Shown: piece after piece, positions 1,535-4,500 of the stretch
Position numbering within the stretch: the first letter of the stretch is position 1
Layout: every line of letters begins with the position of its first letter
Assembly: GCA_951804945.1 (NCBI GenBank)
Contig: OX638158.1
Location: 28,334,001-28,398,000 of the forward strand
Source: Podarcis cretensis
Lineage: Eukaryota
Reading direction: 5' to 3'
Length of the DNA stretch: 64,000 nt
Notes under the pieces: generated by a model
What the model saw: only the letters and a program-made list of their open reading frames with translations
Databases searched by the model: none
Told to the model about the DNA's origin: nothing
Program-made: the position numbers and the translations under genes

Positions 1535-4500
1535 CTGTGAAGAAAAGACACTGTCAGGGACTCAGCGGGAGCGCAGGGAGGAGAGGAGACGGAGAGCGAG
1601 GGGGAGCAATCTGAGGGCAGCGTAGGAGAATATGACAGCAGCCCGATAGATTCCATGAGCCTCTCCAGCGAATCGGAAGATTCACAGAAGGGGGCGCCGA
1701 TGGGCAGGGCAAGGGGCGACCCAAGGGGGACACCCCAGAAGCAAGGGGCCAGCGGGGACTCCCAGAGCAGCAGTTGGAATTCAGGACCAGCTTCCCCACC
1801 AGAGCGTAGTGGGGGGGGAGGAGTCCCAGGTGTCAGAGCCCACATATGCACCACCAGCGAGAGAAGATGAGTCAGGGTTGACCACGCCTCCATCGGAAAG
1901 CGAGTTAACGGTCAAGAGGAAAGTTGCAGGCTGGGCGCGCGCGCCAAGTTCAAAGGTACAGGCAAGCGGCACAGAAGGTAGCCCGGATAGGGAACCAGGT
2001 CCTAAAGCCCGCCGGAAGGAGGGGCAAGAATCGTCAGGGTCAGCGTCAGAGGAGTCCAGGAAGGATGAGACCCTAGCGGGCAGGAGGGCCCAGAGGAGAA
2101 AGGAACTTAGGAAGAGGTGGAGCAAGGCGAGGGTCTTAAACTGGTGTGGAAGGGGAGGAGACTCAGACGGGACTTCGCCGGTCTAAGGTCGAGACGTAGA
2201 GCTGCACGCTGCGGCTTTAAAATGGAAACTGAATCTCAATAAAGACTTTTGTACATAACTACAGCCTAGCGTTGGTCCTCTGTGAGCTGGGACCTGGAGG
2301 CAGCTCTGACAGACACGTTCTTATTATAGGACATGAGGCAGATGCTTGTGGATTCCCTGGTGGTAGTCAACAGGAGCATTTCTAGCAGCTTATATTGCAC
2401 CCCTCCAAGAGAAGTCCTAGTCACAATCATGCTTCAACATGCCTTGCAGGCCTTTTCCCATCTGGCCTGGAAGGTTGGGGCCCTGAATAACTCCAGCTAC
2501 AAAAGCTGAGGCGACTTAACAGACTCTTGGGCTGGGGTGTTGTTTGTTTGGCGATGGGTTGTTGCTGATGGGTTTTTGTATATTTTAGATCTTGAGGTTT
2601 GTGTGGAAACTGTTTAGTTTGGTTGTGTATTTTCGAAATCTTATTTATTCATTACGATTACTTTCGTTATGTTGCAGCTATTCCCCCCCCCCCCCATGTT
2701 GCAAGTTGTCTTGTCCTATTGTGCAAGCAGAAGGCTACACATGCAGTGTTGGATTCCAGGCTGTATGTTTTGTTTATTGTACGCCCGCCAGCGAACAACA
2801 AACACTGTTCCTGTATTTTTTTATGGGGGGAAAAGTTCGTTTCTCAACCCCTATTCCCACTGCAAGTCACTAAGGATGTTCTTTAAAATGGAAAGTTAGG
2901 GCATAATTAAATACTTCACTATTTTAGTACTAAGTAAATGCCATTATTTCTCATTAGGTTTGCAAAGATCTTTCCAAGTGCAATGAAAAGGTGCCTTCTA
3001 ATAGTCATATAGTGAGTAAACACAGCATATCTCGCAAAGGATTAACAACAAGAAAAAATCCAAGCTAAAGCAGCCACATACAAAGGCAGGGATACAGCTG
3101 TTTTTCCCCTCATTATCCCCTACCCCTAATACAGGCAAGAGTGGCAATCTATATTAATCTTCAAGTCACTTTTGATATGTGAGTATAGTACAATGCTTCT
3201 TTTTACCTTCTTCTCATGGTTGGGGATGATGCAACGGACAAAGTTGGGGTTGGTGTTCCTCAGGGTAGCCATCAGCTTGGCCAGTTGCTCCTTGTACAGC
3301 TGTCCTACTGTTCGGAACATGCCCTTCCTGGTCTTAAAGGCCCCAGGCAATGCTGTGTCTGACATGCCAGCCACCTGATCCAGCCCAACTATGCGATCAA
3401 CTAGAGGAAAGACACCAGATTGTTAATATTTTCCCCTAAACAGCTTTGGTGAGAGAATGCCTAACATATCTGGATACAACAAGGATAAAAGGAGTTTGCA
3501 GGATCCATTTGCTTCACTCCTCTACAGATGTGGAGGACCAATTCATCATTTGTATTGGGCAAAAACAAGGAGGGAAGAAAGCAGCCAACTATTAAAACTA
3601 AGATCCATCTCATGCCTGAGAGATTTTAAACTGCAATTTTATGTCAAGGTCTAGGAGTAAAGTAGAACTGGCACAATGGGTTTGATTTAGACAAAATATT
3701 CTCTCTCATGCTTGATGTAACCAAAAAGGAAAAACACTTCTCACAATGCTAGCCCCTACAGACTCAATATTTTCCAATGAATGCAACCAATTCAAGTAAT
3801 GGAATTATGTAAGACAAAGTTATAGCAGTCAACAGTCAAGCCAAGACTGCACTTGGAAATTTTTTACAGGGTTCCTGCTGTAAAATTTAAAATATTTGAT
3901 CAGACCTGGTGTAGAGAATCAGATGTGATTTAAAAATCCATTTTCTAGTACCAGACAACATCTGTAAGCTAAATATATTAACAAGATTCATTTCTCCTTC
4001 TCACTCTGATAAGGAGTCTCTCCCTGGTATATCCCATGGGTCATAAATGATAGAATTTATGAAATCACTGCCCAGTGTGCCATGTTATAATGTGCGTGTG
4101 TTTTAGCTGGAACAACTTGTCTCACTGGACACAAGGAGGCAGTTTAGTATTAGCATGTCACAGCAACTGTCCCTCAGTGCTAAAAGCAACTAAGCCTTTT
4201 GTTCAATTCTTTTATTTACCAGTTCGCCATGTGCCATAAAAGAAATAAATTATGTAAGATGATTAAACCCCTCTCTTAATATTACTACAATGGACAAAAG
4301 ATAGTTCAACCAAAATTAATCATTCTAATCATCAGAATGAGCCTAATGGGATAGATCAGGTTTTTAAAAAATGCAATCCACCAAACCACTGAATTCTGCA
4401 CTCAAGCCAGCCACTGCTTCACATAGCTCAATGAGCATGTGGCTGTCAAAAGCTCTTTCTCCCCTAAAAAAATAAGAAAAGACTCAAAGGAAGACCTTTA

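Follow-up and report, generated by a model that had tools for sequence, protein, structure and literature searches.

Branch sites cluster at -18 to -35 relative to the 3' splice site, and an AG needs a spacing of 8 nt or more from the branch point to be used, with competitor AGs within 12-18 nt being hindered, according to the accessible part of one account (PMC5378181). Elements are seldom found this close to an exon. In the accessible portion of a survey, a single full-length intronic LTR element among 10,150 in mouse comes within 20 bp of an acceptor, compared with 4 of 40 mutagenic ones, and the corresponding figure for full-length AluY is 3 of 54,136 (PMC3088655). Small changes in this zone can also be damaging. 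Among 55 spliceogenic single-base changes at -26 to -4 in NF1, 49 create an AG; the new AG was used in 25 of these 49, skipping or cryptic sites followed in 17, and both outcomes occurred in 7, as given in the available text (PMC7317903).

Several insertions next to acceptors have been described, and we summarize them from the accessible parts of the reports. A SINE in intron 4 of dog FAM161A (c.1758-15_1758-16ins238) causes exon skipping and retinal disease, and the part of the report available describes no replacement branch site (PMC3976383). The dog merle SINE in PMEL lies antisense to its host gene and parts the branch point from the native AG; it brings with it a pyrimidine tract and a further, cryptic acceptor, and the two acceptors compete (PMC7349775). 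Antisense Alus 19-52 nt before an exon in human F8, FGFR2, NF1, FAS and GK alter splicing in all five cases, by skipping or by alternative use of the exon (PMC2533698). Such inserts can nevertheless become fixed, as did an Alu 24 nt before exon 3 of RABL5, although there exon 3 was made alternative and the putative branch site was placed downstream of the Alu (PMC2533698). A transposable element supplies the predicted branch sequence, wholly or partly, in three further cases: LTR78 (antisense, F8 intron 18), L1MD3 (GPR143) and AluY (CEP290), each of which serves a mutation-activated pseudoexon (PMC7951965). Thus, both branch-displacing elements near acceptors as disease alleles and element-derived branch sites for pseudoexons are already known.

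Here we describe an LTR that stands just upstream of a constitutive exon of a MYH9 gene, probably of a lizard. The Podarcis muralis names of the best-matching proteins point to a lacertid as the probable host. The window, that is, the whole 64-kb stretch of DNA analysed, covers the greater part of the motor-domain half of this gene on the minus strand, and we located 16 of its coding exons, from 35645 down to 1534. The last of them (1413..1534, minus strand, 122 nt) encodes the SH1-helix region, and we take it to be exon 17, following the human numbering in which exon 1 is non-coding. Its translation is identical to Myosin-9 residues 680-719 at 40 of 40 positions. Myosin-10 differs at one residue, and this V/I position rules out MYH10 as the identity of the gene. 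The codons for R702 and R705 lie inside the exon at 1468 and 1459 (minus strand), so that the preliminary description was right to call this the SH1-helix exon carrying both residues. Exon 16 lies at 3207..3400 (minus strand), and intron 16 (3206-1535) is 1672 nt long with the insert and 907 nt without it. Skipping of the 122-nt exon 17 would put the message out of frame.

Two further features of the gene are worth recording. In intron 17, the 3' end of a LINE (1-1170, plus strand), with a frame of ~280 codons containing one stop and an A-rich tail, lies antisense to MYH9 and stops ~240 nt away from the donor of exon 17; together with the LTR in intron 16, it gives exon 17 a retroelement on each side. 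Between exons 15 and 16, a 63-nt cassette exon (5264-5202, minus strand) has good splice sites, and 16 of its 21 residues equal those of the NM IIA loop-2 insert A2 as quoted in PMC10480317, which describes this insert as conserved among mammals. Judged by its translation, insert A2 appears to have been kept in this reptile as well.

The element in intron 16 is a 760-nt Ty3/Gypsy solo LTR (1552..2311, plus strand, 59% GC) lying antisense to MYH9, with its own 5' end toward the acceptor and a gap of 17 nt between its edge and exon 17. Two copies of the target-site duplication GACAC flank it, the left at 1547..1551 and the right at 2312..2316 (both plus strand), and the insertion amounts to 765 nt when one duplication is counted. 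The preliminary description had reported the GACAC duplication, the 17-nt spacing and a displacement of ~765 nt, and every coordinate was reproduced. The termini, TGTCAG…CTGACA, form a perfect 6-nt inverted repeat, with 7 of 8 bases matching overall. An AATAAA at 2238 on the plus strand provides a polyadenylation signal in the element's own sense, and neither AATAAA nor ATTAAA occurs within the LTR in the sense of the MYH9 transcript.

The LTR also carries the C-terminal tail of a Gypsy pol frame (1553..2186, plus strand), with protein matches at 1658-1822 and 1869-2183. This tail is split over two overlapping plus-strand frames, the frame changing between the matched blocks. These frames match the last 175 residues of Podarcis muralis UniRef proteins named Gypsy retrotransposon integrase-like. 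Against one of these, P0002, identities are 42/55 and 75/105, and both sequences end at the same final residue. P0002 itself shows RVP_2 (32-132), RVT_1 (241-402), RNase H (466-597) and integrase (696-866), which is the Gypsy order; Pfam gave no match for the two LTR frames themselves. The tail is common to five database proteins (P0001-P0005) at 69-76% amino-acid identity, the range for the P. muralis entries being 70-76%. In the P. muralis proteins P0001 and P0002 and in the Logan-derived P0003-P0005, as in the insert, the pol frame enters the LTR and has the same end; this part of the frame runs for ~210 codons as a tail that is acidic and serine-rich, then basic. Unlike these relatives, whose termini are known through two codons, the MYH9 copy is a lone LTR with a frame shift between blocks. 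The part that P0001 and P0002 have in common opens with D-V-R; in P0004, the sequence leading into V-R is unrelated. Because the first bases of the insert encode the same V-R pair, its left boundary coincides with the LTR boundary of the family.

Searches for further members of the family returned little. Within the 64-kb window, blastn and tblastn for an internal domain or a second LTR copy matched only the insert, and Rfam at gathering thresholds gave no matches. None of 27 pattern matches among viral contigs was confirmed as a relative, and among the best 20 of 958 papers on lizard Gypsy elements none concerned this LTR family by title. A DNA transposon or MITE was ruled out because of the pol-tail homology. 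By each feature tested, the insert is a Ty3/Gypsy solo LTR.

We asked how old the insert might be and whether it is real. The CpG observed/expected ratio of the LTR is 0.61; for 63 intron tiles the median is 0.16, and one of them reaches 0.61. Four SINE copies in the window have ratios of 0.62-0.87, and since these are at least as high, the LTR ratio is no proof of a very recent insertion. The LTR is youngish, and its CpG content neither dates it nor proves a very recent age. The four copies are GC-rich, SINE-like interspersed repeats of ~330 nt (24356-24693, 32332-32661, 33312-33642 and 49117-49446) that we presume to be Sauria SINEs. Two of these repeats lie in one intron in opposite orientation, 666 nt apart and with 88% complementarity, and could, from their sequences, pair in the pre-mRNA. 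Another intron feature of the window is a 56-nt head-to-tail duplication of 96% identity (17905-18016).

That the insertion is an artefact of assembly we regard as highly improbable. The 5-bp duplication is perfect, the ends are exactly TG…CA, and the left boundary equals the family boundary in three database proteins (P0001, P0002 and P0004). Four sequencing runs of one study, possibly the source of the assembly itself, contain 0.89-0.95 of 1044 words sampled from the window. Two of them miss 52 and 63 of the 1044, fewer than the about 84 ± 9 words that touch the insert, and these two runs must therefore contain insert sequence, for which other copies are a possible source; the remaining two runs do not bear on the question. 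No RNA run is among those listed as sharing the words. Runs from four other organisms share 0.52-0.69 of the words (about 98-99% identity), a level compatible with the insert being present or absent.

The insertion leaves little of the host intron at the acceptor. The remaining host end (1535..1551, minus strand) is 17 nt long and consists of one duplication copy, the pyrimidine tract and the native CAG. Positions -17 to -5 hold 11 pyrimidines out of 13, and the only adenosines are at -4 and -2. The former branch region (2317..2340, minus strand) lies beyond the LTR, and its candidate adenosines 2321, 2324 and 2334, each with 3-4 U2 pairs, were once at -22, -25 and -35 and are now at about -790. 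Because the host tail has no adenosine beyond -4, a branch point at a normal distance must fall in the LTR. Normal splicing of the allele would thus all but require a branch point inside the element.

A branch point far upstream would escape this argument: either the host site, displaced to about -790, or a site inside the LTR at roughly -76 to -122 might be used. Distal branch points do exist and can be conserved, as stated in the part available of PMC5378181, and a long pyrimidine stretch follows the adenosines at -76 and -78. However, several AGs would have to be bypassed before the native one, at least GAG1561 and CAG1551, and the adenosines at -76 to -99 pair poorly (2-3 pairs). For the host site, an AG 6 nt into the far LTR end scores only -6.4 as an acceptor. 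We consider distant branching very unlikely. At that far end (2306-2311, minus strand), the insertion placed this new CAG 18-19 nt downstream of the host adenosines that it displaced; the pyrimidine tract of the CAG is poor, and the LTR contains no GTRAG donor to close a cryptic exon.

Within the normal range, candidates are few. In the pre-mRNA, the LTR terminus reads CCCTGACA (1552..1559, minus strand), and its A1554, at -20, is the predicted branch point. A1554 falls within -18 to -35; its distance is 19 nt to the native AG, above the 8-nt minimum, and 3 nt to the new CAG. A second candidate, A1562 at -28 (1561..1567, minus strand), overlaps the cryptic GAG ending at 1561. Upstream of it runs an adenosine-free, pyrimidine-rich LTR stretch (1563..1609, minus strand), with no A between -29 and -75. 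As a result, the region from -18 to -75 contains three adenosines here (-18, -20 and -28), versus 10-26 at all 13 of the other MYH9 acceptors counted (13 of 14 were covered). We scored each candidate against the U2 hexamer that pairs with branch sites. In CCCTG[A]C, A1554 has 4 contiguous pairs, 3 of them Watson-Crick; A1562 has 4 pairs with 2 Watson-Crick, and A1552 (-18) has none. The fit of A1554 is ordinary, a better U2 match being present at 8 of 14 other MYH9 acceptors. A special RNA structure was considered and rejected, since z is 0.81 and an equally good fold arises in 155 of 200 shuffles; A1554 is unpaired in the predicted centroid and paired in the minimum-energy structure.

The preliminary description had pointed to the A at 1554 as a yUnAy match at -20. 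Its position and motif hold, but the motif is weak and does not represent an independent event. A strict yUnAy occurs at -18 to -40 in 6 of the 14 other MYH9 acceptors examined. At random intron positions of the window (20,000 draws each), yUnAy is found at -18 to -40 in 34% and CTRAY in 8.5%, and CTRAC at -18 to -25 in 1.3%. Taken alone, the yUnAy match is weak evidence. Moreover, CTGAC is simply the reverse complement of the first bases of the LTR and is present at both of its ends. The same motif encodes the V-R pair at the pol tail; element biology thus accounts for it. Because the motif is the terminal inverted repeat, built into the element, its match to a branch site is no sign of selection. 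The LTR end presents CTGACA in either orientation, and wherever 15-32 host bases remain, the A falls at -18 to -35. Calling the terminus "exapted", as had been proposed, is therefore unproven: an unchanged terminal repeat needs no selection after insertion. Given splicing at 1535, the geometry and the lack of a usable host adenosine lend good support to the broader claim that the branch site comes from the LTR end. In this claim a single LTR site had been envisaged; A1554 is indeed the best placed, but A1562 had been missed.

The presence of A1562 raises the possibility of redundant branching, in which both LTR adenosines are used, splicing is mostly normal, and the route from -28 leaks a few percent of a +16 product that is degraded. 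A1562 has its 4 U2 pairs and lies inside -18 to -35. Its distance of 11 nt to CAG1551 exceeds the 8-nt minimum, yet falls in the hindered range. On the other hand, the base after A1562 is a G, and A1562 forms one fewer Watson-Crick pair than A1554 and is 27 nt from the native AG. We view this redundant, slightly leaky branching as rather improbable, though a serious contender.

The consequences of any such leak depend on the decoy AGs. The new CAG ending at 1551 (-17), whose minus-strand G comes from the left GACAC, would add 16 nt, and the cryptic GAG ending at 1561 (-27) would add 26 nt, an extension that meets a stop at its codon 17; both are out of frame. These two frameshifting AGs had been noted before and are confirmed, but a third cryptic acceptor had been overlooked (1611..1630, minus strand; AG ending at 1611, +76 nt, out of frame). 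Use of this third site leads to a stop at codon 19. We scored acceptors with a crude matrix from 14 MYH9 sites, which omits the 28-nt exon and the alternative 63-nt exon and whose leave-one-out scores range from -2.4 to 8.3. The native acceptor scores 2.6, equal to the leave-one-out median, CAG1551 scores 0.2, GAG1561 -7.0 and the 1611 site 4.5. The latter is the top-scoring LTR site and, on this crude matrix, lies above the native acceptor. Of 13 GT[A/G] sites in the LTR, none is a GTRAG donor.

We propose that branching at A1554 resolves this crowding of AGs. The Gypsy LTR separates the old branch region of MYH9 intron 16 from its pyrimidine tract, and A1554, three bases inside the LTR end, would act as the main branch point, with exon 17 still being spliced at the native AG. 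The intact host pyrimidine tract would recruit U2 snRNP, which would pair at CCCTGAC. The GAG at -27 would then lie upstream of the branch point, and the CAG at -17, only 3 nt past the branch A and the sole AG between it and the native acceptor, would be too near for use, below the 8-nt minimum. Branching at -20 would thus neutralize both nearby decoys, GAG1561 and CAG1551. Presumably a full-length element inserted first, with the same end toward the exon, and recombination later left one LTR. The fit would reflect a pre-adapted LTR end and the survival of a lucky landing site, without later tuning. On balance, we lean modestly towards this prediction that a pre-adapted LTR end has replaced the branch point at MYH9 exon 17.

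The main competing explanation is a harmful or hypomorphic allele that is still segregating. Here, the new CAG at -17 and the loss of the old branch region would cause exon 17 skipping or use of the +16, +26 or +76 site; the products would decay, and the other allele would sustain the carrier. The nearest upstream AG was at -21 before the insertion and is now at -17, versus -24 to -59 at all 14 other acceptors, so that the AG-free zone is the shortest among the 15 compared. The perfect duplication and the CpG ratio of 0.61 suggest a young insert, but this ratio is no higher than that of the four SINE copies in the window. Precedents also point in this direction: the NF1 changes for which outcomes are tabulated (n = 49; PMC7317903), the SINEs and Alus near acceptors that disrupt splicing, and the scarcity of near-acceptor elements in reference genomes set against their frequency among mutagenic ones (PMC3088655), all as given in the accessible parts of these reports. 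The NF1 AGs, however, sit between branch point and acceptor, where they are usable or break the tract, whereas the MYH9 CAG is 3 nt past the predicted branch A and the tract is intact. The insert also seems to have survived long enough to be reduced to a solo LTR, which speaks against this explanation.

The function of the gene bears on both views. Loss of NM IIA disrupts mouse embryos, as the accessible part of the report describes (PMC11395477). A common allele must therefore splice. Heterozygous Myh9-null mice, on the other hand, are viable, and an assembly shows one allele; presence in one assembly thus does not prove tolerance. We judge the harmful segregating allele to be unlikely, though a serious contender. 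A leaky or hypomorphic allele of either kind, the alternative raised in the preliminary description, is a substantial possibility when the small leak and the harmful allele are counted together, one that falls somewhat short of even.

If branch-point replacement at A1554 is correct, it would have consequences beyond this gene. No class of intronic elements is purged more strongly than those inserted within 20 bases of a splice acceptor, and such insertions are known to cause disease; branch rescue by an LTR end would explain how an insertion of this usually splice-breaking type could be tolerated. In MYH9, which is an essential gene, a constitutive exon offers a natural and clean test of spliceosome geometry. 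Its three candidate adenosines, three decoy AGs that are all out of frame, and single native AG lead to sharply different predictions. Should the allele turn out to be rare and damaging, it would join the splice-disrupting insertions already known.

A bolder and doubtful extension is that the LTR family constitutes a portable branch point, such that copies landing 15-32 nt before an acceptor replace the branch site they displace. If so, the A-poor pyrimidine stretch of the antisense end would funnel U2 onto one A, and the family would settle acceptor-adjacent zones from which other elements are purged. Even essential genes could then harbour fixed copies, MYH9 intron 16 being the type case. 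Should this rule hold family-wide, it would explain the survival of some LTR ends beside exons and sharpen the assessment of insertion variants close to acceptors.

These results place the MYH9 LTR among the insertions known to displace branch points, with clear differences. In word-matched literature that lacks most subscription papers, we found no earlier case of a constitutive exon whose branch point had been replaced by the terminus of an LTR, which is weak evidence of absence. The insertion in dog FAM161A resembles the MYH9 LTR in geometry, with a near-identical distance to the exon, an intact AG and a branch site displaced by hundreds of bases (PMC3976383); the LTR end in MYH9, however, presents a yUnAy match at -20. 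Like the human Alus in F8, FGFR2, NF1, FAS and GK, the LTR is antisense and close upstream of a constitutive acceptor (PMC2533698). With the merle SINE it shares antisense orientation, separation of the branch point from the native AG, and an added pyrimidine tract and cryptic acceptor. In merle, the length of a poly(A) tail tunes the leak, whereas the fixed terminus of the Gypsy LTR would set the branch point in MYH9 (PMC7349775). Unlike the branch sites that LTR78, L1MD3 and AluY lend to pseudoexons, the one in MYH9 would serve, through a terminal repeat, an old constitutive exon that has kept its native tract and AG.
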